Assembly (NCBI GenBank): GCA_022825665.1
Contig: JAJDWI010000112.1
Span: 172-64,171 of the forward strand
Origin: Candidatus Poribacteria bacterium
GTDB lineage: Bacteria; Poribacteria; WGA-4E; WGA-3G
Direction: 5' to 3'
DNA: 64,000 nucleotides
Under the pieces are notes generated by a model. It had not been told where the DNA came from and did no database searches. It worked only from the letters and a program-made list of their open reading frames with translations. Every line of letters starts with the position of its first letter. Position 1 is the first letter of the stretch. Position numbers and translations under genes: made by a program. Below, one piece after another: positions 3,457-64,000 of this stretch.

Positions 3457-4289
3457 AACAACATTCACATTTAATCACATTGGTAGGAGGAATTTTAGCA
3501 TTCTTCTCTTTTGGATTACCGTGGGAAAATGATCGTTCAGGTGCTTTACTTGCTAACAGTGGCGAAGACACACTGGTTACAATTCTATTCATTATCGGTT
3601 TAACAATTGTCTGCTTCAGTTTTTCTATGTTAAGCCGCTATACCGAATGGTACCTAACATCTAAAATAGCAGCACTTTTCATATCTGGTTTGTCACTCTT
3701 ATTCTTTTCAATTATTGTTGACATATTTATCGGTTTCAGTCTTTTTCCTCTAATGTGGAGGTCTAACTTCATATTCTCCTTTGTCCAGAGAATCAGCGGT
3801 ATATCATTACTATTTTTCCTTGCTTTAGCAATTATTGGGTTTGCTGTATATGTTGCAAACCGACAGGTATATCAAATGTCTTGGCGTAAAACACTTGCAC
3901 TCAGCATTGGGGGTGTTAGTGTACTGTTCTGTTTTGTTTTGTCGTTTGCTATTGATAACACGGGAATTAACCTATTTATTATTTCTTTTATCGCTGCATT
4001 AATCATTACTGGAGTTTGCATATATAGGTTGATCCGACAATCTCCGTGGCGATCTTGGTCAACATATATAATGTTGATATGCATTAGTATAGGTTTCTGT
4101 ATCTTCTTAATCCATTTCCTTGGAAGAAGTCTTGACATAAGAATGAATGGAGAATTACTATACAATCCACAATACGGAACGTTCCTAACTGCAGTTGGAT
4201 ATCTTATTGCAATTATTGGTGTATTGAGCAGCATTGAAACAAAGGAAAGTCCGGAGCAAGATTTGAATTCTACAGAAGATGAAGAATAA
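3453..4289 (+). CDS. polytopic membrane protein, paralogue c
   Basis: 278 aa. The GTG start overlaps the TGA of paralogue b (gtga). Contains motif GLPWENDRSG, a last helix YGTFLTAVGYLIAIIGV and an acidic tail. Confidence 0.7.
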   Translation: MKQHSHLITLVGGILAFFSFGLPWENDRSGALLANSGEDTLVTILFIIGLTIVCFSFSMLSRYTEWYLTSKIAALFISGLSLLFFSIIVDIFIGFSLFPLMWRSNFIFSFVQRISGISLLFFLALAIIGFAVYVANRQVYQMSWRKTLALSIGGVSVLFCFVLSFAIDNTGINLFIISFIAALIITGVCIYRLIRQSPWRSWSTYIMLICISIGFCIFLIHFLGRSLDIRMNGELLYNPQYGTFLTAVGYLIAIIGVLSSIETKESPEQDLNSTEDEE

Positions 4290-4349: not shown

Positions 4350-4503
4350 CTGTAGGAGTGATCTCCGAATCGCGACCTATTACCCTAAAAATCTTGGTTC
4401 AGGCAACATCGTAGGGGCGAGGTCACCTCGCCCGTCTTCACCCCACACCTTCTTCTGTAGGAGCGACCGATGAATGCCAAATGGCATTCATACCGTTGAT
4501 TTA
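4350..4503. repeat. cluster of modular intergenic repeats (modules C, D, B, C, E)
   Basis: Contains ctgtaggagtgatctccgaatcgcgacc (also at 27605 and 27841), atcttggttcaggca, gtaggggcgaggtcacctcgcccg (4411-4434), and gaatgccaaatggcattcataccgttgattt (also at 24069, 61088, 61968). Confidence 0.75.
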
Positions 4504-4577
4504 CCGGGCGCGACTTTACGACATATATCTACGAATTAACGAAAACTGAATGGCTCTGGGATATCCCATGGAAGCAA

Positions 4578-19933: not shown

Positions 19934-21394
19934 ATGGCACAAAAACCGAATATCCTATTTCTTCAAAGTGACGAACACAGTCCACATGCTATCGGATGTG
20001 AAGGGAACGATATTGTCCAAACACCGCACCTTGATCGGCTTGCCGAATCTGGCAACTATTTTGATGCAGCATATTGTCAATTTCCACTCTGTACACCTTC
20101 ACGAATGTGTATGTTAACGGGTAAATATGCACATCGGTGCTCTGCTTGGAATAACGGTTCCATCCTATTCCCTGAACATCTGACAATACCAGCACATTTT
20201 GCTGAACACGGCTATTCAACTGCCCTTGTTGGAAAAATGCACTTTGGTGGAAAAGAACAAAACAACGGTTTCCAATCACGCCCTTACGGTGACTTGCGCG
20301 GGAATGCGGGACATCAACGTGACCCGTTAAGTGGTAACCGTAATCGCACAAAAGATGCTGGTGTCACTGAAATACCAACAAGCCTTCTCCAAGAACGGGT
20401 GGTTAACGAAGAAACAATTGAATATATAAGGTCTCATCCCGCAGATAAACCGTGGTTTTTGCTCGCAAGTTACAGTCGTCCGCACTTTCCGTTGACTGCT
20501 CCGAAAAGGCTGCTTGATAAATACTATCCTGACAATGTGGACATGCCTAATATCCCGCCAGGACATTTGGAACAAACGCATCGCTATGCGGAGGGGCTGC
20601 GAAAATGCTTTAATACAACTGACATTACAGAGGAAGAAACACGAAAAGCGCGTGCGGCATACTATGCATGCTGTGAATTCCTTGATGAATGTCTTGGTGA
20701 TTTGCTAACTATCTTAGAACGCGACGGTCTATTAGATAATACAATTATCGTTTATACTACTGACCACGGTGAGATGGCAGGTGAGCATGGACAGTGGTGG
20801 AAATCCAGCTATTATGAAGCTGCAGCAAGAGTTCCACTCATTATTTATGATACCCGTTCAAAAGATACACACGGTAGACGTGTCAATGCTCCTGTGGAAT
20901 TAAACGACCTATTTCCAACGTTATGTGCAAGGGCAGATATACCTATACCCGATGGGTTAGACGGTTCGGATCTATCCAACCTAATGTTAGGAAATACGGA
21001 AGGTTGGCGAAATACCGCAATCAGCGAATATTGGGCAACACAAACAACCGGACCAATGCGTATGTTGAGAACGCCGCGTTATAAATACGTAGCTTTCCCT
21101 GAGGATGAATCCATCTTATTTGATCTGGAAAATGATCCCGACGAATTTGAAAATCTAACAGGTAAATCTGAAGTAAGCGACATAGAAGCATCTCTACATG
21201 AACAACTCATGGAGGGATTCTCGTGGGAGGATGTCGCAAAACAACAAGAAGTAGATAAAGAACGCAGCAAAGAGTGGAAAGCACCGTGGGGAAGAGGCAC
21301 ACCAAATGCCTATACTTTACCCGACGGTAGAATTGTAGATGCTGAACTTTGTCTGTATAATCCTGTCCTTCGGGATGACCCTATAGGTGAATAA
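19934..21394 (+). CDS. sulfatase (formylglycine-dependent, choline-sulfatase-like)
   Basis: NILFLQSDEH, the CxPxR motif (PLCTPSRMCMLTG), and TTDHGEMAGEHG. Confidence 0.9.
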   Translation: MAQKPNILFLQSDEHSPHAIGCEGNDIVQTPHLDRLAESGNYFDAAYCQFPLCTPSRMCMLTGKYAHRCSAWNNGSILFPEHLTIPAHFAEHGYSTALVGKMHFGGKEQNNGFQSRPYGDLRGNAGHQRDPLSGNRNRTKDAGVTEIPTSLLQERVVNEETIEYIRSHPADKPWFLLASYSRPHFPLTAPKRLLDKYYPDNVDMPNIPPGHLEQTHRYAEGLRKCFNTTDITEEETRKARAAYYACCEFLDECLGDLLTILERDGLLDNTIIVYTTDHGEMAGEHGQWWKSSYYEAAARVPLIIYDTRSKDTHGRRVNAPVELNDLFPTLCARADIPIPDGLDGSDLSNLMLGNTEGWRNTAISEYWATQTTGPMRMLRTPRYKYVAFPEDESILFDLENDPDEFENLTGKSEVSDIEASLHEQLMEGFSWEDVAKQQEVDKERSKEWKAPWGRGTPNAYTLPDGRIVDAELCLYNPVLRDDPIGE

Positions 21395-21406
21395 AAAAGA
21401 AATATA

Positions 21407-21532
21407 ATACCATTTCTAAATAATAACTTCTCATTAACAAAGAACGCGTTCGTAGTCGCGCAATTCATTGCGCCTCTTACATTTGACTTTATTAAAGTCT
21501 CAAAATGTGGTTTATTTATTAGAATTTGGTAT
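21407..21532 (+). repeat. full-length ~126-nt MITE (TIRs ataccatttctaaataa / ttatttattagaatttggtat)
   Basis: The termini are inverted repeats. An internal palindrome gcgcaattcattgcgc is present. A second full copy lies at 56391-56518 and partial copies at 25335, 27747, 35982, 36596 and 42346. Confidence 0.8.
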
Positions 21533-23607: not shown

Positions 23608-23668
23608 TGTTGCCTGAACCAAAATTAGTAGGATAATAGGGTGTTTGTGGAATGTCTGATTCACTGAA

Positions 23669-24109
23669 CCATTAGCGTCAATTTAAGGAGAAACCGCGTT
23701 CGTAGTCGCGCAATTCATTGCGCCTCGGACATGCCGTAGGGACGAGGTCACCTCGCCCGCATGCTCACATACAGTCCTGTAAACCGAAGCAAGCAAAGCA
23801 GCCTTCGACATATATGTTATCTGAACCAAGATTTCCAGGATCGGGAGTTAGTGGGTATATATTCCGTTGTCCAGGAGGAAGGACTACCTTTTGCAAAGGA
23901 ACATCGGCATACAATCTCTTATCCTGAAAATCCTGTAATCTTGCAAATCCTGGTTCAGACAACAAGCAATTCAAACGGACAAGAATCACTAAATTGACGC
24001 TTATGGTGCGGTTTCCTAACCGCACTGGAGTTTTCCCAAAATTACCGAATTAATAAATTAATCTTCAAATGGCATTCATACCGTTGATTTGAAAATCCTG
24101 GTTCAGACA
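23669..24109. repeat. composite nested repeat (~338-nt element bounded by ccattagcgtcaattta / taaattgacgcttatgg, plus flanking modules)
   Basis: The outer TIRs are at 23669-23685 and 23990-24006. Inside are modules A (gcgttcgtagtcgcgcaattcattgcgcc) and B (gtagggacgaggtcacctcgccc), a hairpin module, and a nested MITE at 23818-23961. It is followed by gtgcggtttcctaaccgcac and gcattcataccgttgattt modules. A second copy lies at 61671-62064. Confidence 0.8.
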
Positions 24110-25334: not shown

Positions 25335-25651
25335 ATACCATTTCTAAATAATGACTTCTCATTAACAAAAAACGCGTTCGTATCGCGCAATTCATTGCGC
25401 CTCTTACATTCTCCGTAGGGGTAGGGGCGAGGTCACCTCGCCCGTCTTCACGCGCCTCTTACATTAACGTAGGTCGGAGCAAGTATAACGACCTCCGAGA
25501 TACACACTAAAGCCTCGGAGAGAGGCGACAGGTGTATAGCAAACGTTTTTCCTACTAATAGTAAGCCCCAGAGGGGCGACAGGTGTATCAGATACACTAA
25601 CGTTACGCCCTAAATTGACGCTTATGGCTTGGTTAGGAAAACGAACCTACC
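25335..25651. repeat. mosaic of repeat modules (MITE left half, A, B, hairpins, right TIR taaattgacgcttatgg)
   Basis: It starts 4 nt after the stop at 25330. Modules are shared with 21407, 23669, 33183 and 61671. ggcgacaggtgtat is duplicated at 25524 and 25574. Confidence 0.75.
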
Positions 25652-27604: not shown

Positions 27605-27867
27605 CTGTAGGAGCGATCTCTGAATCGCGACCATACCACAAGGACACAAGTCTCGGAGAGGCACCATGCTCTTATGACATTTGTCGCCTGATGCACATCG
27701 TAGGGGCGGGGTTTCCCCGCCAGTATTGACACTTTACATATCGGATGCGTTCGTAGTCGCGCAATTCATTGCGCCTCTTACATTTGGATTTATTAAAGTC
27801 TCAAAATGTGATTTTATTTATTTAGAATTGGTATTATATTCTGTAGGAGCGATCTCCGAATCGCGAC
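27605..27867. repeat. cluster of repeat modules (C, B-variant, MITE right half 27747-27834, C)
   Basis: ctgtaggagcgatctc(t/c)gaatcgcgac at both ends, gtaggggcggggtttccccgcc, and gcgttcgtagtcgcgcaattcattgcgcc ... ttagaattggtat. Confidence 0.75.
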
Positions 27868-28119: not shown

Positions 28120-29856
28120 ATGGAAAATAAAGTACTCGGTTGGGTGAAAGTTGCCGAGTTAAGCGAAGTGCCTGAGGGACAACCGAAGGCAATTAAAATG
28201 GGTGAAGGACGCAGCATTGCCCTCTTTAACGAAGACGGAAAGATATATGCGACTGATAACCAGTGTCCACACATGGGTTACCCGTTGACGCGAGGCACAA
28301 TCCGAAATGGTATCCTCACATGTGATTGGCATAGGCGCAGCTTTGATTTAGAAGGTGGTGGATGTTTCCACGTCGAATGTGATGATCTACGAACGTTTCC
28401 TGTAGATATCAGAGGAGAGGAAATCTGGATTGAACCCGGTGATATGACATACCGCCGTGCCGAAGAACATAAGAAATTGCTCCGAGAAGGTCTTTTAAGC
28501 GAAGACCGTTGGACAATGTCAAAGGCAATTGCGCTGTTGCTTAAAGGTGGTGTCCCAGAAGAAGAGGTAATGGGAGCGATTCTTGAACACGTCGCACGAC
28601 ACATCCCCAGTGCTCACGGGTCAGAAGGTGGGGAGGATGTCTCCAAACTAATAAATGGACTTAGAGTTGGAAGTCGGTATGAAGGTGAAGATAGACTAAT
28701 CGCAGTCACCACCGCTGCATGTTCTGCTGCAGGAGAAGCACGGCAACGTCTTGAGGTAGTTCCCCTACCGGAACCTGTTACGTGGGAAAAGATAAGCCGT
28801 TGGGTTCGTATCTTCTCTTATGAAGGACAAGCTGGTAGAATTGAACGATGTCTGTTCACTGCTTATCATAAAGGCGATGAAGACAAATTACGTCCGTTGT
28901 TGTTTGAATGTGCTGTGGAACCCAATTTTATTGACAATCCACAAATACCGCTTTATGTGAGTTACCTTTCTGAAGTCGTTGATGAATTCGGATGGGACCG
29001 TACAGCTGACTTGTTCTTCTATCTCGGTGCAGACCTTGTAGGACACCATCCAGCAGACCCAGAACGGTATCGTAGAGACGCTATCAATCTTATGAAAGAG
29101 ATGCTACCATCCATTGAAGGTGCCACATTAGAACGCACCAATAAGTTTGATGAAGATGCATTTGTGGAAGCACTTACCAGCGTCAATCTCCAACGTTCCT
29201 TTGAGGAAGTTCAAACTGTCATAGTTGATGGTGTCAAGTTAGACAGAATTATTACAACACTTGTGTTGCTTGCAGCGGATAGGATGGCGAACACACCTGT
29301 TAATGTAGATGCGGGTTGGTGGAACTTAACAATGGAACTTAACCTTGCGTCTTCTCTACGGAGTGCACAGCAAATAGGTGGTAACCTTGTCGCAGCGAAG
29401 GGTTTATTCCATGTTGCATGGCAAATCTTTGCTGACCGATGGATCAATATCACCTCACGACCTCTGAGTGAACCGTTAAGTGCCGAAAAACTTAATGTCG
29501 CTAATGAGGATGAAGGTGTAAAACTAATTATTGGGACAATCGAGTCGCTCAACGTACAAGATGTGGGACCACAAGTGCTTGGATATCTAAATTCTGGTTA
29601 TTCTGGAGAACGTCTTATAAAAGAGATAGGACATTCAGTGCTATGGGATGATACAGGTAGTGAAGTCCTACCAACTTTACGTACTGTATTTGAAGAATGG
29701 AAACATGCTGACGGACATCCAGCACAACCCCAGTTATTAGTTGGATTAGCACGTTACGTTACAGATATCCGATCCAATACCGATAACAAATCTGCTGCTA
29801 CCACTGCAATGAATTTTGCAGAAGGTAGAACAACGATTGAGGTATTTGAGGAATAA
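28120..29856 (+). CDS. Rieske [2Fe-2S] domain protein with ~470-aa unassigned C-terminal domain (paralogue 1)
   Basis: C49-P-H51 ... C68-D-W-H71 (CPHMGYPLTRGTIRNGILTCDWH). The rest of the protein has no motif I recognise. Confidence 0.8.
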   Translation: MENKVLGWVKVAELSEVPEGQPKAIKMGEGRSIALFNEDGKIYATDNQCPHMGYPLTRGTIRNGILTCDWHRRSFDLEGGGCFHVECDDLRTFPVDIRGEEIWIEPGDMTYRRAEEHKKLLREGLLSEDRWTMSKAIALLLKGGVPEEEVMGAILEHVARHIPSAHGSEGGEDVSKLINGLRVGSRYEGEDRLIAVTTAACSAAGEARQRLEVVPLPEPVTWEKISRWVRIFSYEGQAGRIERCLFTAYHKGDEDKLRPLLFECAVEPNFIDNPQIPLYVSYLSEVVDEFGWDRTADLFFYLGADLVGHHPADPERYRRDAINLMKEMLPSIEGATLERTNKFDEDAFVEALTSVNLQRSFEEVQTVIVDGVKLDRIITTLVLLAADRMANTPVNVDAGWWNLTMELNLASSLRSAQQIGGNLVAAKGLFHVAWQIFADRWINITSRPLSEPLSAEKLNVANEDEGVKLIIGTIESLNVQDVGPQVLGYLNSGYSGERLIKEIGHSVLWDDTGSEVLPTLRTVFEEWKHADGHPAQPQLLVGLARYVTDIRSNTDNKSAATTAMNFAEGRTTIEVFEE

Positions 29857-31342: not shown

Positions 31343-33091
31343 ATGTTATCAGAAAATGGAAATTTCGTTAAAGTCGCTGCCCGCAATGATATAGCAGAAG
31401 GAAAACCAAGGGCAGTTAGAGTTGAAGGGCATAGTATTGCCCTATTTGAACATGAAGGCAATGTTTATGCAACGGATAATCAATGTCCACACATGGGCTA
31501 TCCGCTCATAAGAGGACATGTCAAAAGAGGTGTGTTAGCATGTGACTGGCATGGATGGAGTTATGATATGGAAGGCGGTGGGTGCTTCACCGGTGGTTGT
31601 GATGACCTTGCCACATTTCCTGTTGAAGTCCGAAATGGGGACATCTACATTGATGTTGAAAGTGGTGGAAAAAAACGCGATGACGCACATTTTCTGTTAT
31701 TGAAAGAAGGGCTATTTTCACAAGACAGTTGGACGCTTTCCAAAGCTATTGCCATTATGTTAGCGAAAGGTGTTTCAGAAGACGAAACCTTGGAGATAAT
31801 GGTCAAGCACATGGTGCGGCATATTTCAACCACCCAAGATGCACGAAGCGGTGGTGGACGAATCGCAACACTGATGTACGGAATTAAGGTCGCGCACATG
31901 TATGAGGCTGAAGACAGACTTATTCCGCTGATGATGGCTGCAACGCATGCTGCGGGTAGTCACAATGACCGTCCTGACCGACAACCTTTACCACCACCAG
32001 TTGACTGGGAAAAACTCGAAAATTGGATTAGAGTGTTCACAGCTGATAAAGAGTGGGAAGGTATAGAAAAATGCCTAATCACAGCAAGAGCATTAGGTGG
32101 ACATGAAGATAAATTCATCCCGCTCTTCCTCGATTGTGCATCCCAATGGTTTTTCCTCAGCTACTCCAGAAACCTTATTGACCTTTGTCATCTGGCTGAA
32201 GTGCTTGAGAAATGGGGATGGGAGTTAACCGGAGAATTAGTGTGCAACCTCGGCGCAAAAATACTCGGGCAAGGTAGAGGTAGACCTGGTGAACGTCTCC
32301 GTGAAGCACTCCAAAAACTGGAAGAAATTGAGCATATTTTTGATGATCTGCCACAGGAACAATCACCTGATGTTGACGTCGACTTTGACGAAGATGAATT
32401 ATCCGCAGATCTTGTCAGTGGGGATATAGACACAATATTTGATGCTATCACGAAAGTACTTACAGCAGGCGTTCCCATTGACTCAATTGCTACCACTATG
32501 GTTATGACCGCTGCTGATAGGATGGCAAGAACACCGGTTAACATGAGTCCAGGTTGGTGGGATTTACAAGAAGAGATGGAAATGGCTGCTAACATCAGAA
32601 AACTACTCCGATTTGGCGGCACAAAAATAGCAGCAAAGGCTCTCTACCATTGTGGATGGAGATTTTACTCAAACCGATGGCTAAACATACGACATCAACC
32701 TATTTCAGAGGTGAGAACGACTTCTACCACCAAAGTACTTGATGAAGATATTGCAATTGACGCAATCATTGATGGGATTGAATCTGTCCGCATCCAAGAA
32801 ATCGGACGACGTACCCGAGAATATCTGAACTCAGGCTGCTCTGCTGAACGGTTGATGCGTGAAATGGGACTATGTATTCTCAAGGATGATAGAGGAGACA
32901 ACCTCCTCAGCAGCATCTATATTGTATCTAATGAATGGAAAAGGTGCGAGTCACATCCTGCCAGAAATCAACTGATCGTTGGGTTAGCACGATGGGCAAC
33001 GGATATTCGTAGAAATACTGGAAACGACTCCGCTGTGCAAACGGCACACCGTTTTGCAAAAGGCGAGACCGCTACAGAACTTTATGAATAA
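31343..33091 (+). CDS. Rieske [2Fe-2S] domain protein with ~470-aa unassigned C-terminal domain (paralogue 2)
   Basis: CPHMGYPLIRGHVKRGVLACDWH. Collinear with 28120-29856 along its full length. Confidence 0.8.
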   Translation: MLSENGNFVKVAARNDIAEGKPRAVRVEGHSIALFEHEGNVYATDNQCPHMGYPLIRGHVKRGVLACDWHGWSYDMEGGGCFTGGCDDLATFPVEVRNGDIYIDVESGGKKRDDAHFLLLKEGLFSQDSWTLSKAIAIMLAKGVSEDETLEIMVKHMVRHISTTQDARSGGGRIATLMYGIKVAHMYEAEDRLIPLMMAATHAAGSHNDRPDRQPLPPPVDWEKLENWIRVFTADKEWEGIEKCLITARALGGHEDKFIPLFLDCASQWFFLSYSRNLIDLCHLAEVLEKWGWELTGELVCNLGAKILGQGRGRPGERLREALQKLEEIEHIFDDLPQEQSPDVDVDFDEDELSADLVSGDIDTIFDAITKVLTAGVPIDSIATTMVMTAADRMARTPVNMSPGWWDLQEEMEMAANIRKLLRFGGTKIAAKALYHCGWRFYSNRWLNIRHQPISEVRTTSTTKVLDEDIAIDAIIDGIESVRIQEIGRRTREYLNSGCSAERLMREMGLCILKDDRGDNLLSSIYIVSNEWKRCESHPARNQLIVGLARWATDIRRNTGNDSAVQTAHRFAKGETATELYE

Positions 33092-33182: not shown

Positions 33183-33332
33183 CCATAAGCGTCAATTTAA
33201 GGAGGAAATGCGTTTGTAGTTACACTTTTCAATGTGCCTCTTACATTATCATTATCGTAGGGGCGAGGTCTCCTCGCCCGTATTCTCATATACAGTCCTG
33301 TAGGTCGGAGAGCAAAGCGACCTACGACATGG
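33183..33332. repeat. left half of the composite repeat (ccataagcgtcaattta, A-variant, B, hairpin module)
   Basis: Collinear with 23669-23815 and 61671-61820. Confidence 0.75.
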
Positions 33333-33370
33333 ATACTAAGCCCGGACAAATGCTATACGGGGAGTATCTT

Positions 33371-35981: not shown

Positions 35982-36117
35982 ATACCATTTCTAAATAATA
36001 ACTTTTCATTAACAAAGAACGCGTTTGTAGTCGCGCAATTCATTGTGCCTCTTACACTAACGTAGGAGCGAGGTCGCCTCGCTCGTGCAAACAAGATAAT
36101 TCAGGTTAATTTGGTAT
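35982..36117 (+). repeat. MITE variant between the two MORN paralogues
   Basis: ataccatttctaaataataacttttcattaacaaa + module A + module B + gtgcaaacaagataattcaggttaatttggtat. The right end also occurs at 61190-61225. Confidence 0.75.
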
Positions 36118-36131
36118 TATGAGGTGAAATT

Positions 36132-36596: not shown

Positions 36597-36776
36597 TACC
36601 ATTTCTAAATAATAACTTCTCATTTACAAAAAACGCGTTTGTAGTCGCGCAATTCACGCGCCTCTTACATTCTCGTAGGGGTGAGGTCGCCTCGCCCGCA
36701 TTCTCACATATAGTCCTGTAGGTCGAAACAAACTTGCAACCTACAACATGCTTGTCTAAACCAAGATTTTCAGGAT
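36596..36776 (+). repeat. MITE left half plus A, B, hairpin and D modules
   Basis: It starts on the last base of the TAA stop codon (36594-36596) of the upstream gene. Collinear with 23690-23841. Confidence 0.75.
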
Positions 36777-38054: not shown

Positions 38055-38314
38055 TAGATACAATCTGTATACTCTTCACCTATATGGCGAATTATTAAAA
38101 TAATTGGACATTTTACATGTAGAAGCAACTGGCAAATCAAGAAATCAACGGTATCAATGTCTGTAGGCATTACCGAGTATGAATGCTATTGTCAGAATAC
38201 GCGCATGGAATTCTGTCTGATTTCCCGAGGCACTCCTACTGGACACTGACAAATAATGATACACTGTTTATTAGAAGTGGTATAAACTCTCTTGTAGAAA
38301 AAGGAATAATCCTT

Positions 38315-39469
38315 GTGAATGACATCATCTACATGGACAATCACGCAACAACACCAATTGCACCGGAAGTGTTAGATGCAATGCTGCCGTATTTAACGAA
38401 TCACTTCGGCAATGCATCAAGCACACATCCGTTTGGTGTTTATGCAAAAGATGCGGTGGATAAAGCACGACAACAGGTAGCAAACCTTCTTGATTGCTCA
38501 ACTGAAGAAATTATCTTTACAAGTGGCGCAACGGAATCAGATAATCTCGCTATTGCAGGTGCTGCTTATGCGTTTAAGGACAAGGGTAACCACATTATCA
38601 CAAGCACAGCAGAACATCATGCTGTGCTTGATACATGTCACGTCTTAGACAAAGAAGGATTTGAAACCACATATCTTCCAGTAGATAAATACGGTATGGT
38701 AAATCCTAACGATGTTGAAGCAGCCATAACACCAAAAACCGTATTGATGAGTTTCATGTATGCTAATAACGAAGTTGGGACAATCAATCCTATACAGGAC
38801 ATCGCCAAAATTGCCTCAAAACACGGTGTGCTGTTCCATTCTGATGCGGTGCAAGGAATCGGTAAACTTGAGTCGAGTATGGATGTGTTAGGACTTGATA
38901 TGGCTTCAATTACTGCCCATAAGATTTACGGACCAAAAGGCATTGGGGCACTATACATCAGGAACGGAATTCGTATTGACCCGTTGTTTTTTGGAGGCGG
39001 TCAGGAGAAAGGTGTTCGTCCTGGAACATTGAATGTGGCAGGGATTGTAGGTTTGGGTGCGGCGTGTGCATCGTGTCAGACAGCAATGGAGATGAAAACA
39101 GAGGAAAAAGTCGTTGGTCCTTTGCGCGATACACTCTTCCAAAAATTAGCATCAGAGTTAACAGATATTCATCTCAACGGTCATCCAGAAAATCGTTTGT
39201 TAGGCAACCTAAATCTCTGTTTTGCAGGAGTACAAAGCCATTCACTTTTGGCAGGGCTCAAGACAGTTGCCGTATCAACAGGTTCAGCGTGTGATTCGGA
39301 ATCTGTCACCGCATCACACGTATTAGTAGCGATGGGTATCCCCAATGAGTTAGCGATAACTGCTGTCCGTTTCGGTTTGGGCAGATACAATACGGAAGCG
39401 GAGGTAGATAGCGTCGCGAATGAAGTAATACAAACGGTTAATAGATTACGCACCTTAGCAGAAGAATAA
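38315..39469 (+). CDS. cysteine desulfurase (NifS/IscS class V aminotransferase)
   Basis: IYMDNHATTP, the PLP-lysine block SITAHKIYGPKG, and the active-site block STGSACDS. I prefer the GTG at 38315 over the track start at 38183. Confidence 0.85.
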   Translation: MNDIIYMDNHATTPIAPEVLDAMLPYLTNHFGNASSTHPFGVYAKDAVDKARQQVANLLDCSTEEIIFTSGATESDNLAIAGAAYAFKDKGNHIITSTAEHHAVLDTCHVLDKEGFETTYLPVDKYGMVNPNDVEAAITPKTVLMSFMYANNEVGTINPIQDIAKIASKHGVLFHSDAVQGIGKLESSMDVLGLDMASITAHKIYGPKGIGALYIRNGIRIDPLFFGGGQEKGVRPGTLNVAGIVGLGAACASCQTAMEMKTEEKVVGPLRDTLFQKLASELTDIHLNGHPENRLLGNLNLCFAGVQSHSLLAGLKTVAVSTGSACDSESVTASHVLVAMGIPNELAITAVRFGLGRYNTEAEVDSVANEVIQTVNRLRTLAEE

Positions 39470-42048: not shown

Positions 42049-42290
42049 TGAAACATATATCAAATATATTGGATATATATTGTTATCAAACACAATAACA
42101 CTACAAAACCAAACGACCATCAAGTATAATAAAACCTAACATTCAATACATAACTTACAAAATGGAGTAGCCCAATGACTATCAACCAAATTCAAAACGA
42201 AATCCTCAAATAAATCACACGAAACTTATGCAATGCGATGACAACATACCAAAACACAAAAACCGAAAAAAAACAACTAAATGAAGCTTA
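42049..42290 (+). repeat. A/C-rich repeated segment, homologue of 61333-61606
   Basis: tgaaacatatatcaaatatattggatatatattgtt (42049-42084) is matched by tgaaacatacatgaaagctattggatatatattgtt (61333-61368). Both are followed by A/C-rich tracts containing aaaaccgaaaaa. Confidence 0.55.
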
Positions 42291-48755: not shown

Positions 48756-48893
48756 TGTTCTGAACCAGGATGGACAAGATTATAGGATTTTCAGGATTTG
48801 GAAATTTGCAAAATCAACGTGATTCGTAATCGTCTATATTTTTGTTGACCTCAATAAATAATCCTGGTAATCCAGTTAACTCTGGTACAGACA
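48756..48893. repeat. MITE-like element of the ctgaaccagg...cctggttcagaca family
   Basis: tgttctgaaccaggatggacaagattataggattttcaggat ... aatcctggtaatccagttaactctggtacagaca. Confidence 0.7.
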
Positions 48894-56390: not shown

Positions 56391-56518
56391 ATACCATTTC
56401 TAAATAATAACTTCTCATTAACAAAAAACGCGTTCGTAGTCGCGCAATTCATTGCGCCTCTTATATTTGGATTAGCATTAAAGTCTCAAAATGTGGTTTT
56501 ATTTCTTAGAATTGGTAT
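56391..56518 (+). repeat. full-length ~128-nt MITE (second full copy)
   Basis: ataccatttctaaataataacttctcattaacaaa ... gcgcaattcattgcgc ... ttatttcttagaattggtat. Near-identical to 21407-21532. Confidence 0.8.
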
Positions 56519-56567: not shown

Positions 56568-58016
56568 ATGGCTAATGAACGTCCAAATATCGTACTAATC
56601 ACCACTGACCAACAACGCGGCGACTGTTTGGGTATTGACCCAGACGGTCCCGACTGTCTACAGACACCGAATCTTGACTGGATTGGTCGCAGTGGAACAC
56701 ATTTTCGACGTGGATACGCAGAATGTCCAAGTTGTATTCCTGCCCGTCGCGGTCTAATGACAGGCACTGCACCTGCAGCCAACGGAATGGTTGGATATAC
56801 AGGAGCACAATGGAATCCACCACATACACTGGCAGGTGAATTGTCCGCAGCAGGTTATCAAACCGAGATGATCGGCAAACTACATCTGTCTCCACCACGT
56901 AGGCGTTACGGTTTTGATCATATTCAGCTGTCCGATGCTACCCATGGAACCGCTAACAATGACTACGTAGAGTGGTTGCAACAATACCATAGTCGTAATG
57001 ATTACGATCCAGGAATGGCACACGGTGTCTCTGCTAACGGATGGGTTGGACGACCACATCATCTTCCCGAAGAACAGATGCACACCTTCTGGTGTGTCGA
57101 CCGCGCCCTTAAATTCCTCCGAAAACGCGATCCATCAACTCCCTTTTTCCTCAACATCTCCTTTATAGACCCACACCCACCACTGACACCACCTGAACAT
57201 TATTACCAACGTTACATACAGCGGGATCTTCCACCTCCCGTTATTGGTGATTGGTCATTAAACCTTGACATTGAACAGAAAGGGCAGAATCCAAATGCGT
57301 GGGAGATTAACCTTGACAAATACGATATGCAATGTGCGCGGGCTGCCTATTACGGAATGATTAACTTTATAGACGATCAGATTGGTCGGTTACTTCAAAA
57401 CGCTGGTAGTTTAAATGACTGTCTCATAATTTTCACTTCCGACCACGGTGAAATGCTTGGTGACCATAACATGTTCCGCAAAACCTTCCCTTATGAAGCC
57501 TCTGCACGAGTGCCGTTTCTTGTACGAGCACCTCGAAGATGGGGTTATCCACAAGAAACCGTCTGTAATAGTCCTGTTGGTTTGCAGGACATCATGCCCA
57601 CAATTCTTGACGCGGCAAATATTGAGATTCCAAGCACCTGTACTGGTAAAAGCCTTCTACCCATCATGCGAGGTGATGCTGATCAGGTAAGAGAATGCCT
57701 ACATGGGGAACACTCCGGTTGCTACGATAACAAACATGGCAACCACTATGTGACCGATGGAGAACACAAATACATCTGGTATTCCCAAACGGACAGAGAA
57801 CATCTCTTCAATCTACAAGAAGATCCACACGAAACAACAGACTTAGCACTTCAGAGCGATGCTGAAACTCGGCTAACTCCATGGAGAGATCGTCTGATTG
57901 AGTTCCTACGCGACCGCCCTGAAGGCTTTACGGATGGAAAGAATCTCATTGCGGGGCAATCGCATAAAGCCTTGTTGCCTGATTATGATGCCAATGCAAC
58001 ATATCCTTATTTATAA
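56568..58016 (+). CDS. arylsulfatase (formylglycine-dependent)
   Basis: NIVLITTDQQR, the CxPxR motif (SCIPARRGLMTG), and TSDHGEMLGDH. Confidence 0.9.
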   Translation: MANERPNIVLITTDQQRGDCLGIDPDGPDCLQTPNLDWIGRSGTHFRRGYAECPSCIPARRGLMTGTAPAANGMVGYTGAQWNPPHTLAGELSAAGYQTEMIGKLHLSPPRRRYGFDHIQLSDATHGTANNDYVEWLQQYHSRNDYDPGMAHGVSANGWVGRPHHLPEEQMHTFWCVDRALKFLRKRDPSTPFFLNISFIDPHPPLTPPEHYYQRYIQRDLPPPVIGDWSLNLDIEQKGQNPNAWEINLDKYDMQCARAAYYGMINFIDDQIGRLLQNAGSLNDCLIIFTSDHGEMLGDHNMFRKTFPYEASARVPFLVRAPRRWGYPQETVCNSPVGLQDIMPTILDAANIEIPSTCTGKSLLPIMRGDADQVRECLHGEHSGCYDNKHGNHYVTDGEHKYIWYSQTDREHLFNLQEDPHETTDLALQSDAETRLTPWRDRLIEFLRDRPEGFTDGKNLIAGQSHKALLPDYDANATYPYL

Positions 58017-58365: not shown

Positions 58366-58884
58366 GTTGATTTCAAGAAACATCATTATCATGGATATAA
58401 AACTGACCACGAAATATATAAACGTGAGATATGCAAAGATGTTTCGGCAATGGCTAACGCTGCAGAAGGATATATCCTTATTGGTGTTGATGAAGAAAAC
58501 AAGATCGCTCAAAGATTTGTTGACATCCCTGATGCAGAAAGTAAAGCACAAAGCATCTACAATATTTGTCATCAACATATAGTTCCACGCATCGCAAAAT
58601 TAGAGGTAAAACCATACACTTTGAGATATCTGGGTAATGAGTTCAACCTTATAATTATCCATATTCCTTTTAGTGAAATTCGTCCTCATGGTTTTGCTTC
58701 AAATGGAACGCTCAACTTTGTAAAACGGTATGGGGATACTACAAGAGAATTTCAGATGTTAGAGTTCATTCCTGAACTTTTAGCACGACATCCATTGCCA
58801 TTCATAGAAGACATTAGCGGAAGGTTAGACCGAATTGAAAGTCAAACGGCAGATATATTAAAGGAAATCGGAGGGAACAAATGA
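58366..58884 (+). CDS. AlbA_2 (Schlafen-like, putative nucleic-acid-binding) domain protein; start displaced by a 1-nt frameshift
   Basis: VDFKKHHY...ICKDVSAMANAAEGYILIGVDE...IIIHIPFSEIRPH...VKRYGDTTREF fits the AlbA_2 pattern. The only RBS-linked ATG (58362, RBS gaggag) is one base out of frame. Confidence 0.55.
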   Translation, partial: VDFKKHHYHGYKTDHEIYKREICKDVSAMANAAEGYILIGVDEENKIAQRFVDIPDAESKAQSIYNICHQHIVPRIAKLEVKPYTLRYLGNEFNLIIIHIPFSEIRPHGFASNGTLNFVKRYGDTTREFQMLEFIPELLARHPLPFIEDISGRLDRIESQTADILKEIGGNK

Positions 58885-59607
58885 ATGTACTTTCGTCAAG
58901 ATATAATGCTTTTGTTAAATCTATATCTGACCAACCCTATTACCACATTTGTGCGTTACCCGTTGCAACCAATCGGAATGTAGTATCTACCGAAGAACAA
59001 CGTATACGCAATATTTTACGTAAACCCCCAAATAAACGTTGGGCAGGATTTGGGGTTACAGGACTATGGGAACAGGAAGTGTCTCAATTAGAAAACGGTA
59101 TAAATGGACGCAATATTACTGGAGGGCAGATTACTTTATTAGAGGATGGATATTTTGAAGTAAAATGTCCTATATGTATCCAATTTCAAAGAGGATGGGG
59201 TTCCCCCACAATTCGCAATTCCTAACTCTGTAAAATGGTTATACCCGTATGTCGTTATTGAGTTTCCTGTATCATTCATGCGTTTAGTGAAAGTAATATA
59301 TGATGAATCTGGTATTGAATCTGACGTGTTCATACAACAGAGTTACCATAATATAAAAGGATATGCGTTACCAGAGGGTCCGCCCACTTATCCTACATTT
59401 GGAGCGTTCTTGGATGAAAGAGGAGTATATGAAAAAGCAGACCCCATTAAATCTAAACAACAGATTCATGCCAAAGAATGGATGTGCGTAGATTTTATCC
59501 CCGACCATGTCGCTTACGCTTTAGTGGCAGACGTGTATGCGAAATTTGGATTAAATGCTAATGCCATTCCTGCGTTTGATGAAGATGGGAAATTTATTTT
59601 AGAATAG
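58881..59607 (+). pseudogene. hypothetical protein split by a +1 frameshift in a C5 run (59203-59207)
   Basis: The ATG overlaps the upstream stop (atga). The frame of ORF 59278-59607 is open from 59164. Removing one C gives a continuous ...QRGWGSPQFAIPNSVKWLYPYVVIEFPVSFMRLVKV... Confidence 0.5.
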
Positions 59608-59636: not shown

Positions 59637-61031
59637 ATGCACAAGGAGACAAGAACCCCCTCATCAATATACGCTCCCGGTGCTGTACTCTTAATCTCCT
59701 GTTATGAACTCGGGCACCGACCAATAGGACTAACGCGCCCTCTTCGCGCACTTGAAAGTGCAGGATTTTCACCCGATACTATTGACATTGCAGTCGAAAC
59801 CTTAGATACAGAAAAGGTCAGTTGTGCAGAGTTTATCGGTATCTCTGTCCCGATGCATACTGCCTTACGACTCGGTGTTCACCTACTCCAACGAATTCGT
59901 GAACTCAACCCAGATGTTCCAATTTGCATGTATGGACTCTACGCGGAACTCAATGCCGACTACCTACTCTCACACGGGGTTGACTATTGCATCAGTGGTG
60001 AAACGTCTACGCAACTCGTTGCGTTAGTACAATCCCTTGTTGAAAAACAACAGACATCTCAGGTAACAATCAATAGTGGAAAACTCCCTACTTTAGAAAA
60101 ATACGCACAATTTGAAGATAACGATGAGGTGCGAACCGTCGGCTATACTGAGACAACGCATGGATGCAAGCATCTTTGCACGCACTGCCCTATTCCTCCT
60201 ATCTATAACGGCAGGTTCTTTCCATTACAACGCGATACTGTATTAGACGAAATTCAGAAACAGGTAGCAGAAGGTGCTACGCATATCACATTTGGTGATC
60301 CAGATTTCCTCAATGGACCGATGCACGGACTCCGTATCCTCCGCGCAATGTATGATTTCTACCCCGACCTTACTTATGACTTTACAACCAAAATTGAGCA
60401 TATTCTAAAACATAAAAAACATTTTCCGGAATTTGCTCAACTCGGATGCCGATTTATCATTTCTGCTGTAGAATCTCTCAGCGAGACAGTGTTAACGATT
60501 TTGGAAAAACACCACACTCGTGCAGATGTTGAAACCGCACTTGAGATCGTTCACGGTGCCGGCATTGCATTACGTCCAACATGGGTGCCGTTCACCCCGT
60601 GGACAACCTTAGACGACTATCTTGAAATCCTTGAATTCGTCAACACACACCGACTTGTCTATCATGTAGATCCTATACAATATGCCGTTCGGTTGCTCAT
60701 TCCACCCGGTTCATATCTGCTTAACCGACCCGAAACAAAGGTACTTGACCTCACACTTGATCAAACTGCCTTTAGTTATATGTGGACACATCCAGACGCA
60801 CGCCTGGATGAACTTCACAAAACGGTCAATACACTTGTAGAAAAAGACGCACGAAACGGTGTTGATACGAAGGACACTTTTTATCGGATATGGGAACTTG
60901 CCGCAGATATGAAAGGACAACCTATACCGAAACGAAGGAATGTATCATATTTACCCGCGCCCCGTATTACAGAAGCATGGTTCTGCTGAGCGGAACCAAC
61001 CGAAGGGCAGTTTGCTCCGATTCATGTCTAA
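59637..61031 (+). CDS. B12-binding-like/radical SAM protein with CUAEP tail (probable selenoprotein; TGA 60987-60989 read as Sec)
   Basis: Radical SAM motif CKHLCTHC. The ORF-caller stop TGA directly follows ...EAWFC and is followed in frame by AEPTEGQFAPIHV, then TAA at 61029-61031. Confidence 0.7.
60988..61019 (+). promoter_or_regulatory. tentative SECIS-like stem-loop immediately 3' of the UGA
   Basis: Hand pairing: gagcgga (60988-60994) with tttgctc (61011-61017), including two G-U pairs. Not folded computationally. Confidence 0.25.
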
Positions 61032-61063
61032 TACCCAATTAACGAGATTTATCTTGTTTTTCG

Positions 61064-61283
61064 ACGGTAGGTGGGGAATACTAAAAAGCATTCATACCGT
61101 TGATTTAGCGGTTTCCTAACCAATGCAGAATGCCATAAGTGCATTCTGCCGAAACCAAGGAACTATCCGTAGGGGCGAGGTTTACTCGCCCGTGCAAACA
61201 AGACGAATTAGGTTAATTTGGTACTATACATTATCCTAAGAATATACTGTTTGTAGTCGCGCAACTCATTATACATCTCATCT
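61064..61283. repeat. cluster of repeat modules (E, F-variant, hairpin gcagaatgc/gcattctgc, B, MITE right-end variant, A remnant)
   Basis: gcattcataccgttgattt, gcggtttcctaacc, gtaggggcgaggtttactcgcccgtgcaaacaagacgaattaggttaatttggta, and tttgtagtcgcgcaactcatt. Confidence 0.7.
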
Positions 61284-61332
61284 TTATCAGAATTACTAAA
61301 AACTCAAAACTACCAAGAAACAACCCCACCTA

Positions 61333-61606
61333 TGAAACATACATGAAAGCTATTGGATATATATTGTTCAAAATTTAATAAAACCTTCCAACATACAAAA
61401 TCACATGTTATAATACGACCACTATGAAAAACAAAAAACCACACGCAACCCATACATTTCCACAAAACAGACCAACCAACACCCAAAAAATGTCCACACA
61501 AAAACTGACCATACCTAAGCAAACCAAAAACGAACCAAAATTGAAAATTTCAAAAATTTACAAAAACCCTATAAACCCAGATACAGACTGGCATAACCCC
61601 AAAAAC
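61333..61606 (+). other. strongly A/C-skewed non-coding tract (possible CA-rich RNA), homologue of 42049-42290
   Basis: The plus strand is almost devoid of G/T runs. aaaaacgaaccaaaa is repeated. The tract ends at the 16-bp hairpin 61607-61652. Confidence 0.3.
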
Positions 61607-61660
61607 AAAAACGAACCAAAAACCGAAAAACACCCGTTTTTGGTTCGTTTTTAAAAGGAG
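61607..61660 (+). terminator. 16-bp perfect inverted repeat with T-tract (terminator-like)
   Basis: aaaaacgaaccaaaaa (61607-61622) pairs with tttttggttcgttttt (61637-61652), with a 14-nt loop. Confidence 0.5.
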
Positions 61661-61670
61661 CAAAAACCAA

Positions 61671-62064
61671 CCATAAGCGTCAATTTTAGGAAGAGATGTG
61701 TTTGTAGTCGCGCAATTCATTGCGCCTCGGACATTCTCGTAGGGACGAGGTCTCCTCGCCCGTATTCTCTCTCATACAGTCCTGTAGGTCGGAACGAGCA
61801 AAGTGACCTCCGACATGTATTCTGTCTGAACCAGGATTTTCAGGATTATAGGATTTTCAGGATAAGAGATTTATATACCAATGTTCCTTTGCAAAAGGTA
61901 GTCCTTCATCCTGGACAACGGAATATATACTTACCAATTCCTAATCCTGTCCATCTTGTAATCCCGGGGAATGCCAAAAGGCATTCATACCGTTGATTTG
62001 GTAAATCCTGGTTCAGACAACAAGCAATTCAGACAGGTAAGAATCACTAAATTGACGCTTATAG
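61671..62064. repeat. second copy of the composite nested repeat (TIRs ccataagcgtcaatttt / taaattgacgcttatag) with inverted core
   Basis: Collinear with 23669-24006, except that the ~79-nt core (61864-61941) is the reverse complement of 23842-23920, and an E module is inserted at 61965-62001. Confidence 0.8.
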
Positions 62065-62316
62065 TGTGGTTTCTTATATGCACCGAGTACATCTGTGGGA
62101 AATAGATAATGGTTGAGTCTCAGGTATTTACTATTTTTTGCGAGTTTCTGAGGGAATGTAATTCATAGAAAAAGTATTTCAATTGTAATTTGGAACAACC
62201 CAGAAGGGCGAAATGTGTATAAATTCTAACTTGTCTGGATGTTAGGCGTTTTCACAACATTCTAAGAGAAGTTTCAAAACTGTCCAAACTATAGTCAACA
62301 CTAACAAGGAAAAAAT

Positions 62317-63006
62317 ATGTCAAAACAATTACAAGAACTACTTGACTTAGAAACTGCACCTATTGCAGTAACATTCCACGAGGCACAACCTGATGGTGTT
62401 TCCCGTGTGGAAAAAGTTGAAGCATCAGGTTGCACCTATTGGAAACGCGCATCAGAAGGGAACACCTTCTACACAGAAGCATCCGACCACTACAACTGTC
62501 CAATAGGATGTTATACCCATAATGTCGAACTACCCGATGCACAAATGAAGGAGTTGGAAAACACACTCGGTCTAATGGGTGAACTCGGTTATATTAGTAT
62601 GGATGAAGTCCCCGGTATTCCTCGTCAAGAAAATACATTTCAAAACGCAGTCTACTCCCCATTAGCAGACACGCAAGACATACCGGATGTTGTTATTATC
62701 TCAGGCACGCCAAAGCAGATGATGCTTTTAGTTGAAGCCGCGACCGCTGCAGGAATAGAGATGGAAAAAGGTCTCATGGGAAGACCAACCTGTGCAGTTA
62801 TACCTGCCGTTATTCAGTCTGATGGAGGCGCAAGTAGTCTGGGATGCATCGGCAACCGAGTTTATACTGCACTCGCTGACGATGATTTCTACTTAGCTTT
62901 CCCAGGCAACCATATTGGTGCTATTATTGATAAGTTAGAGACAATTGTGAATGCAAACCATGCATTAGAGGAGTATCATCAGCAACGGAAAGAGGAATCT
63001 AAATGA
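62317..63006 (+). CDS. DUF169 domain protein
   Basis: 229 aa. PIAVTF...SGCTYWKRASEG..FYT...HYNCPIG resembles DUF169 as I recall it. Confidence 0.6.
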   Translation: MSKQLQELLDLETAPIAVTFHEAQPDGVSRVEKVEASGCTYWKRASEGNTFYTEASDHYNCPIGCYTHNVELPDAQMKELENTLGLMGELGYISMDEVPGIPRQENTFQNAVYSPLADTQDIPDVVIISGTPKQMMLLVEAATAAGIEMEKGLMGRPTCAVIPAVIQSDGGASSLGCIGNRVYTALADDDFYLAFPGNHIGAIIDKLETIVNANHALEEYHQQRKEESK

Positions 63007-63846: not shown

Positions 63847-63893
63847 AACTAATCCTGGTAATCCTATAATCCTGAAAATCTTGGTTCTGACAA
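63847..63893. repeat. right-end fragment of the cctggttcagaca MITE family
   Basis: aaactaatcctggtaatcctataatcctgaaaatcttggttctgacaa. Confidence 0.6.
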
Positions 63894-64000
63894 AAAACCA
63901 CATATCTATACCTCTGCATTGCCGTTGACAAAATCAACTTTTTTATTGTATACTATTTTTAATAGACAAGACTTACGCATAAACGGTAGGCGGGGAATGC

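Follow-up and report, generated by a model that had tools for sequence, protein, structure and literature searches.

An Unannotated Selenocysteine Codon, Predicted from Comparative Evidence, in a Poribacterial CUAEP-Tail Radical SAM Gene

The Gene and Its Read-Through Product

Does a radical S-adenosylmethionine (SAM) gene of Candidatus Poribacteria end at the TGA codon at which programs that call open reading frames (ORFs) stop, or is this codon read as selenocysteine (Sec)? The question is raised by a 64,000-nucleotide stretch of DNA from Candidatus Poribacteria bacterium (GenBank assembly GCA_022825665.1, contig JAJDWI010000112.1, positions 172 to 64,171), hereafter called the window, to which all coordinates refer. 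An initial annotation, made from the letters of the sequence, had described a 450-residue ORF with a CKHLCTHC cluster that continued past its TGA as C-U-A-E-P to a TAA codon at 61029–61031, and the sequence agrees with this description. The ORF occupies positions 59637–60989 of the forward strand and ends ...EAWFC-TGA, the last codons being TGG TTC TGC TGA, with the TGA at 60987–60989. The frame then runs on through GCG GAA CCA ACC GAA GGG CAG TTT GCT CCG ATT CAT GTC before reaching the TAA. The read-through product would have 464 residues and end WFC-U-AEPTEGQFAPIHV (C-U-A-E-P-TEGQFAPIHV). Sec would be residue 451, followed by 13 residues; the Cys-Sec pair had earlier been placed 15 residues from the C-terminus, which the count corrects. 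Since an open extension of 13 codons is common by chance, its significance comes from the comparison with homologues.

The features of the gene and its surroundings are collected in Table 1. The CX3CX2C motif of the radical SAM core, GCKHLCTHC, includes C177, C181 and C184 (60165–60188), and all three cysteines are invariant among the aligned homologues. The PF02310 B12-binding domain scored 31.0 bits in a Pfam search with the window protein, against a cutoff of 32.1. The long ORFs of the window end in TAA (23), TGA (9) or TAG (7), so that TGA, with 9 of 39, is an ordinary stop codon here. An identical copy of the gene is present on an independent Logan contig (L001). A scan of the window for in-frame TGA codons with long open flanks yielded no convincing candidate for a second selenoprotein, and a promoter and terminator scan around the radical SAM gene found nothing beyond what was obtained with shuffled sequences. 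For annotation, the result means that the gene should be extended to position 61031, with Sec at codon 451.

Table 1. Positions of the predicted gene, its parts and associated features in the window.
Feature	Position	Strand	Basis
Complete CUAEP-tail radical SAM gene, probable selenoprotein (464 residues, Sec451, including TAA)	59637..61031	+	NF040546 profile score
N-terminal Rossmann-type, cobalamin-binding-like domain, residues 19–130	59691..60026	+	PF02310; fold of homologue model
Radical SAM core, residues 172–311	60150..60569	+	PF04055, 47.1 bits
Perfect 9-bp palindrome TGGTTCTGC-TGA-GCGGAACCA, formed by the WFC and AEP codons with UGA as triloop; significance uncertain	60978..60998	+	Folding
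Predicted Cys450-Sec451 dyad, TGC TGA, UGA recoded	60984..60989	+	Codon comparison across 77 homologous genes
Predicted translated tail AEPTEGQFAPIHV, overlooked by ORF callers	60990..61028	+	AEPTxxQ kept after both TGA and TGY
Hairpin of selenocysteine insertion sequence (SECIS) type, first base 11 nt after the UGA	61001..61019	+	Folding and covariation in Sec homologues
DUF169 gene, following the radical SAM gene after a 1.3 kb repeat-filled spacer	62317..63006	+	Conserved co-directional downstream partner

Family Membership and Codon Comparison

Profile searches were done with the 464-residue product, with U written as C. The protein matched NF040546, the "CUAEP/CCAEP-tail radical SAM (seleno)protein" family, with 614.7 bits over residues 17–460 and profile positions 1–467 of 468. 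NF040546 is an NCBIfam equivalog model with a curated cutoff of 500 bits. The tail motif of the family, C-[U/C]-A-E-P, is found in the window as TGC TGA GCG GAA CCA at 60984–60998. A family of this name had been suggested in the initial annotation; it does exist, and by its score the window gene is a member. Haft and Gwadz listed NF040546 as an uncharacterised family, one of a small number of selenoproteins in which a CU motif occurs (bioRxiv 10.1101/2022.07.06.499078). NCBI thus already catalogues the family together with its Sec site and poribacterial members, and poribacterial proteins 75–85% identical to the window protein bear the family name there, though in truncated form. The novelty is correspondingly low, and specialists in selenoproteins, for whom family and Sec site are already curated, will not be surprised by the finding.

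The best 120 database homologues, which are 75–100% identical to the window protein, all end ...EAW[FV]C, and every one with a named source is from Candidatus Poribacteria. The truncation of 14 residues found in all of them removes the residue that is most likely to be catalytic. Among representatives of clusters at 50% identity, many stop at ...E.W[FY]C, while many others go on CCAEPTxxQ. For a comparison at the codon level, 80 loci were taken from contigs of one genome per species, spanning Poribacteria, Planctomycetota, Acidobacteriota, Methylomirabilota/Rokubacteria, Gemmatimonadota, Chloroflexota, Nitrospirota, Nitrospinota, SAR324, Myxococcota and others. These provided 77 distinct motif-bearing genes from more than 10 phyla, including that of the window (78 if the identical copy on L001 is counted). 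The codon that follows WFC was TGA in 62 genes, TGC in 11 and TGT in 4, and was TAA or TAG in none of the 77. It was followed by [AS]EP in 75 of the 77 genes, mostly continuing with T-x-x-Q. Besides the window, 10 Poribacteria genomes and about 50 from other phyla share the TGA at this position. Orthologues also lie on complete poribacterial chromosomes, for example OZ242381.1 and OX638351.1, and Cys forms occur, among others, in Nitrospira and Ca. Manganitrophus (L075).

The alternation of Sec and Cys codons in front of a conserved tail is the signature typical of selenoprotein genes. It rules out that the TGA is a true stop or a sequencing error and, together with the ordinary use of TGA as a stop in the window, that the genetic code is reassigned. 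It had been allowed from the outset that the homologues might all end at the Cys, with no AEP extension, and this was not what we found, as the Cys-form homologues continue CCAEPTxxQ. Judged by the comparison of sequences, the window gene belongs to the CUAEP/CCAEP-tail radical SAM family, and the in-frame TGA almost certainly encodes Sec, giving a protein of 464 rather than 450 residues. The WFC-U-AEP tail, the CX3CX2C motif, the alternation of Sec and Cys and the SECIS-type hairpin described below are all shared between the family and the window gene. No substantive difference was seen between them, and the window copy would be called 14 residues short, as are most database entries. Five homologues with 31–36% identity (P0221, P0227, P0235, P0248 and P0249) have a variant of the tail, WFCCAAP in place of CCAEP.

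A Conserved Hairpin Downstream of the UGA

The 60 nt that follow each UGA in the Sec genes were folded, which revealed a recurrent hairpin whose apical loop is formed by conserved codons for Gln and Phe or Leu (CAG UUN). Of the 62 Sec genes, 60 can form 5 or more consecutive base pairs in the conserved register, with the stem starting 11–15 nt after the UGA and closed by a GUU, AGUU or AGUUN loop. In the window, the core stem pairs 61005–61009 with 61013–61017 around a GUU loop (61010–61012), and the outer pairs, C-G and G-C (61001–2 with 61018–9), are formed across an AA bulge.

Covariation was computed on the 46 sequences with a common register. In these, the conserved stem was 79% paired and contained 67 doubly changed cells, compared to 23.8 in shuffles, none of 500 of which reached 67. 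The covariation score was 0.453, compared to 0.147 or less after sliding the 3′ arm by 1–3 columns. One of the stem pairs occurs as CG in 22 sequences, GC in 12, UA in 11 and AU in 1. The covarying bases are the third, synonymous one of a codon for Gly or Asp and the second one of the codon three positions downstream, where the change alters the amino acid (Ala, Asp or Gly), which argues for selection on the RNA rather than on the peptide. Compensatory changes in the stem are seen even inside Poribacteria (GGGCA/UGCUC, GGACA/UGUCC and GGUC/GACC). When the search was relaxed, hairpins with a GU-containing loop were found in 55 of 62 Sec genes versus 1 of the 15 Cys genes (Fisher p = 1.9e-9), although the sequences are phylogenetically related, so that both the Fisher and the shuffle statistics overstate their independence. 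A SECIS supported by covariation is thereby now available for the NF040546 family.

The hairpin shares several properties with bacterial SECIS elements (E. coli fdhF/fdnG type; bSECIS consensus, Zhang & Gladyshev 2005), including its location within the coding sequence about 11 nt past the UGA, a G at position 1 or 2 of the apical loop followed by U, and a stem that is kept by covariation. Both its position and the G at base 1 or 2 of the loop also agree with the published bacterial consensus as quoted in PMC13582414. Unlike those elements, it has a short stem, with a core of 5 bp, no evident bulged U and no match in Rfam, and its loop is fixed by the conserved Gln-Phe/Leu codon pair.

A different stem, pairing 60988–60994 with 61011–61017, had been drawn by hand in the initial annotation. 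This stem can indeed be formed, but it is not a conserved element and has only its 3′ arm in common with the hairpin described here. It was rejected as a SECIS, as it showed no covariation in the 46 homologues and was equalled by 176 of 500 shuffles. The lack of any conserved stem-loop 3′ of the TGA had also been entertained; a covarying one was found. In the TGT form from a Nitrospirae genome (L026, positions 3948–4004), a SECIS-like sequence, GGGGC AGUUC GGUCC, is kept, with the stem broken. It may have been left behind by a recent switch from Sec to Cys.

The codons for WFC and AEP are reverse-complementary, creating the palindrome centred on the UGA (Table 1), which is 94% pairable among the 62 Sec genes. 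This pairability is wholly explained by amino-acid conservation, which leaves covariation uninformative there, and the palindrome is mentioned as a side observation. Only the last base of the Ala codon is free to vary, and 57 of 62 Sec genes have a purine there, mostly as GCG, versus 7 of the 15 Cys genes (Fisher p = 2.4e-4).

Kinship to ArsL and Possible Chemistry

The second-best NCBIfam match of the product was ArsL (NF040542, hydroxyarsinothricin synthase) with E = 4e-95, while the next family reached 2e-10, making ArsL by far the nearest characterised family. An ArsL-type protein is 35% identical to the window protein over residues 18–394. Both consist of three parts, a Rossmann-like N-domain, a CX3CX2C radical SAM core and, at the C-terminus, a short tail that carries vicinal cysteines, and in a multiple alignment the CC of the ArsL RCCLKC tail falls under C450–U451. 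However, the WFCUAEPTxxQ tail of the window protein is located about 55 residues past the core and includes Sec, whereas RCCLKC follows about 19 residues past the core in ArsL. The neighbours also differ, being DUF169, an ATP-grasp ligase, Nfu and YggX for the window family, with no arsM or arsQ. Tails of the ArsL type, RCC[LI][KR]C, occur in four of the representative proteins (P0209, P0230, P0236 and P0255).

ArsL cleaves the Cγ–S bond of SAM to give a 3-amino-3-carboxypropyl (ACP) radical or organometallic species, and this cleavage proceeds without its RCCLKC tail, whereas binding of As(III) and formation of the C–As bond require the tail (bioRxiv 10.1101/2024.02.01.577332; 10.64898/2026.04.29.721666). 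Likeness to this As(III)-binding tail suggests that the Cys-Sec tail may likewise bind substrate, perhaps offering a soft atom of it to the active site.

For a Cys-form homologue with 47% identity, AlphaFold2 gave a confident model, with a predicted local distance difference test (pLDDT) score of 94.5 and a predicted template modelling score of 0.93. The CCAEP segment had a pLDDT of 86–88, which suggests that the tail is docked rather than floppy. The nearest solved folds were AprD4, TsrM, OxsB, MgmA and MiaB, with template modelling (TM) scores of 0.57–0.68 and 13–19% identity; for AprD4, TsrM and OxsB the TM scores were 0.6–0.68. A sequence search of the PDB gave one weak match, to MiaB, and no solved structure for the NF040546 family. 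AprD4, TsrM, OxsB and MgmA are class B-like radical SAM enzymes with a cobalamin domain, and the homologue model resembles them in overall fold, while the N-terminal domain of the window protein is B12-binding-like at a Pfam score just below the cutoff; identity is 13–19%, and they have no CU or CC tail. AprD4, the best fold match, is not known to use cobalamin.

An analogy with ArsL can be carried further, to a reading that we regard as improbable. The CUAEP/CCAEP family would then represent a second, far wider branch of the "non-canonical" radical SAM enzymes of the ArsL type. Its members would transfer 3-amino-3-carboxypropyl from SAM to As, Sb, Se, Te, S or Hg, bound as a soft atom by the Cys-Sec tail. 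The resulting unusual amino acid would, in several phyla, be passed to the ATP-grasp ligase and an Atg22-like exporter, yielding a secreted peptide antimetabolite, and DUF169 would act as a dedicated partner. If this were true, the Poribacteria living as sponge symbionts would make an undescribed organometalloid or organoselenium metabolite. The kinship to ArsL, taken together with the neighbours DUF169, ATP-grasp ligase, Nfu and YggX, offers a testable hypothesis on function, and it is in this kinship and in the chemistry of the NF040546 family that the remaining interest lies.

The Proposed Explanation and Its Alternatives

In the explanation that we favour, with a probability of roughly 85%, the window gene is a member of NF040546, in which SelB carrying Sec-tRNA(Sec) would bind the hairpin at 61001–61019 during translation and thereby insert Sec at the UGA. 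In the product, Cys450 and Sec451 would be adjacent, with 13 residues left to the C-terminus, and ORF callers, which halt at the UGA, would report 450 residues. More speculatively, and by analogy with ArsL, the Cys-Sec tail may keep either the reacting group or a soft atom of the substrate in place at the [4Fe-4S]/SAM site. COGs for SelA, SelB and SelD are listed for Poribacteria bin70, bin44 and WGA-3G (Table S4, Slaby et al. 2017, PMC5649159), and Sec-type hydrogenases have been reported from Poribacteria. As the window has no sel genes, we infer from these relatives that the source genome decodes Sec. The result in turn supports the use of Sec in this lineage of sponge symbionts.

Several observations weigh against this explanation, in addition to the relatedness of the sequences noted above. 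ARAGORN found no tRNA gene, and hence no tRNA-Sec, in the 64 kb window, and tRNA-Sec in 0 of 60 related loci. A motif scan of the window revealed no SelB-type GTPase and no SelD motif, and none of the 30 window ORFs scanned against NCBIfam matched a sel gene. Taken alone, the window hairpin is weak (5 bp, −4.2 kcal/mol); the local 76-nt region is no more stable than shuffles (z = −0.93), and Rfam gave no SECIS match either in the whole window at gathering thresholds or in 60940–61100 with permissive settings. The analogy with ArsL is by homology only. The NF040542 score, 319.4 bits, is below the cutoff of 450, and the window tail, WFCUAEP, lacks RCCLKC; just the CC/CU dyad aligns. Furthermore, there are no arsM or arsQ neighbours in the window, and no ars genes recur across 64 loci.

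The main alternative to a tail that binds substrate concerns the role of the dyad rather than its decoding. The C-terminus could be a mobile arm on which the Cys-Sec pair forms a redox-active selenenylsulfide, like the GCUG of thioredoxin reductase, and this pair would shuttle electrons or resolve an intermediate and not bind substrate. The label "redox-active" in the initial annotation was an assumption of this kind. A vicinal C-U pair near the C-terminus is the arrangement of thioredoxin reductase, and Sec mostly takes the place of a redox-active Cys; both facts speak for such an arm. The neighbours in other phyla include proteins for Fe-S clusters and iron handling (Nfu, YggX and IscA), which would fit a cluster that is sensitive to oxidation or sacrificial and in need of redox support. 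However, ArsL is the only relative to have been characterised, and its tail does not influence SAM cleavage and binds As(III), and the modelled tail of the Cys-form homologue is confidently placed, not disordered. CU motifs, moreover, cluster in proteins that handle heavy metals (Haft & Gwadz, bioRxiv 10.1101/2022.07.06.499078). We therefore view a redox arm as possible, but rather doubtful.

Much less probable is that the UGA is recoded as Cys, either by a SelB-dependent tRNA of the tRNA(ReC)/SelC* type or through near-cognate read-through. According to work cited in PMC13582414, tRNA(ReC) reads UGA as Cys in some bacteria when a SECIS is present, and the 15 Cys homologues indicate that Cys is functionally acceptable at the site. 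On the other hand, canonical SelA, SelB and SelD have been reported for Poribacteria, tRNA(ReC) is a minority system, and the curators of NF040546 treat the site as Sec; we consider recoding as Cys quite unlikely.

Insertion of Sec at the UGA, as we propose, also has to be set against the simplest possibility, a genuine stop that leaves a 450-residue protein ending in Cys and an untranslated "tail" downstream. The chance frequency of 13-codon extensions, the ordinary use of TGA as a stop in this genome and the lack of visible Sec machinery in the window would all be compatible with a stop. However, a stop would not account for 62 distinct genes from many phyla with TGA, and never TAA or TAG, at this codon, for the conserved [AS]EPTxxQ that follows, or for the 15 homologues in which a Cys codon is read straight on. 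The NF040546 profile also matches through the tail, and a covarying hairpin lies downstream. By this comparative evidence, a genuine stop is effectively refuted. An error of sequencing or assembly, or a pseudogene created by a TGC-to-TGA nonsense mutation in one metagenome-assembled genome, might be suspected from the metagenome-type assembly and from the fragmented appearance of the upstream neighbours at 58450–59607, but has a negligible probability given the identical sequence on the independent Logan contig and the TGA kept at this codon in 10 other Poribacteria genomes and about 50 elsewhere.

Genomic Context

The order of genes in this part of the window is an arylsulfatase, three small ORFs, the radical SAM gene, an ORF-poor spacer of 1.3 kb, the DUF169 gene and a short-chain dehydrogenase/reductase. 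Recurrent neighbours were counted over 64 loci. DUF169 was found in 17 loci from Poribacteria, Planctomycetota and Nitrospirota, is co-directional with the radical SAM gene and often starts 67–170 nt after the U/C codon. An ATP-grasp enzyme with an L-amino-acid-ligase C-domain was present in 18 loci (13 of them within three genes) from Acidobacteriota, Planctomycetota, Nitrospirota and others. Proteins related to iron and Fe-S clusters included Nfu/NifU (11 loci, several phyla), the Fe(2+)-trafficking protein YggX (12 loci, mainly Chloroflexota), the gene of which abuts or overlaps the radical SAM start, and IscA/HesB (4 scattered loci). Lastly, an Atg22-like transporter of the major facilitator superfamily (MFS) occurred in 4 loci from Blastocatellia. 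A tblastn search of the window with the recurrent neighbours (ligase, Nfu, YggX, IscA and MFS) found that only DUF169 is present. The neighbours suggest a small-molecule product, of the amino-acid type, and a strong dependence on the supply of Fe-S clusters. In Nitrospina, DUF169 has also been reported beside hgcA-like genes (bioRxiv 10.1101/648329).

The small ORFs upstream (58450–59607) encode 144, 114 and 109 residues. The first is a partial Schlafen/AlbA_2 protein and the others have no family match; the three may be one fragmented gene. Their arrangement is identical on Logan contig L001.

The spacer (61032–62316) is made of dispersed repeats, including an internal pair of copies at 61073–61106 and 61966–61999. 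Further copies were found elsewhere in the window, mostly between ORFs, at 85–109, 4472–4507, 21448–21483, 23667–24109, 25376–25501, 27744–27784, 33183–33337, 36023–36120, 36637–36776, 42049–42084, 48759–48797, 56432–56460 and 63849–63898, as well as in the poribacterial relatives L002 and L003. The repeats look like a family related to miniature inverted-repeat transposable elements or repetitive extragenic palindromes (MITE/REP). DUF169 directly follows the radical SAM gene in relatives L005–L010, and genes for WD40-repeat proteins are inserted between the two in L002–L004.

One of the loci, L050 (CAZCWX010000254.1), is labelled "uncultured Enterobacteriaceae". Its tail and its radical SAM-DUF169-ATP-grasp order match those of the Nitrospira loci L034 and L045, and the label of the bin is therefore probably wrong.

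Elsewhere in the window, and unlinked to the selenoprotein, are two paralogous proteins of about 580 residues with N-terminal Rieske-type ferredoxin domains (28120–29856 and 31343–33091), two sulfatases (19934–21394 and 56568–58016) and a cysteine desulfurase of the NifS/IscS type (38183–39469).

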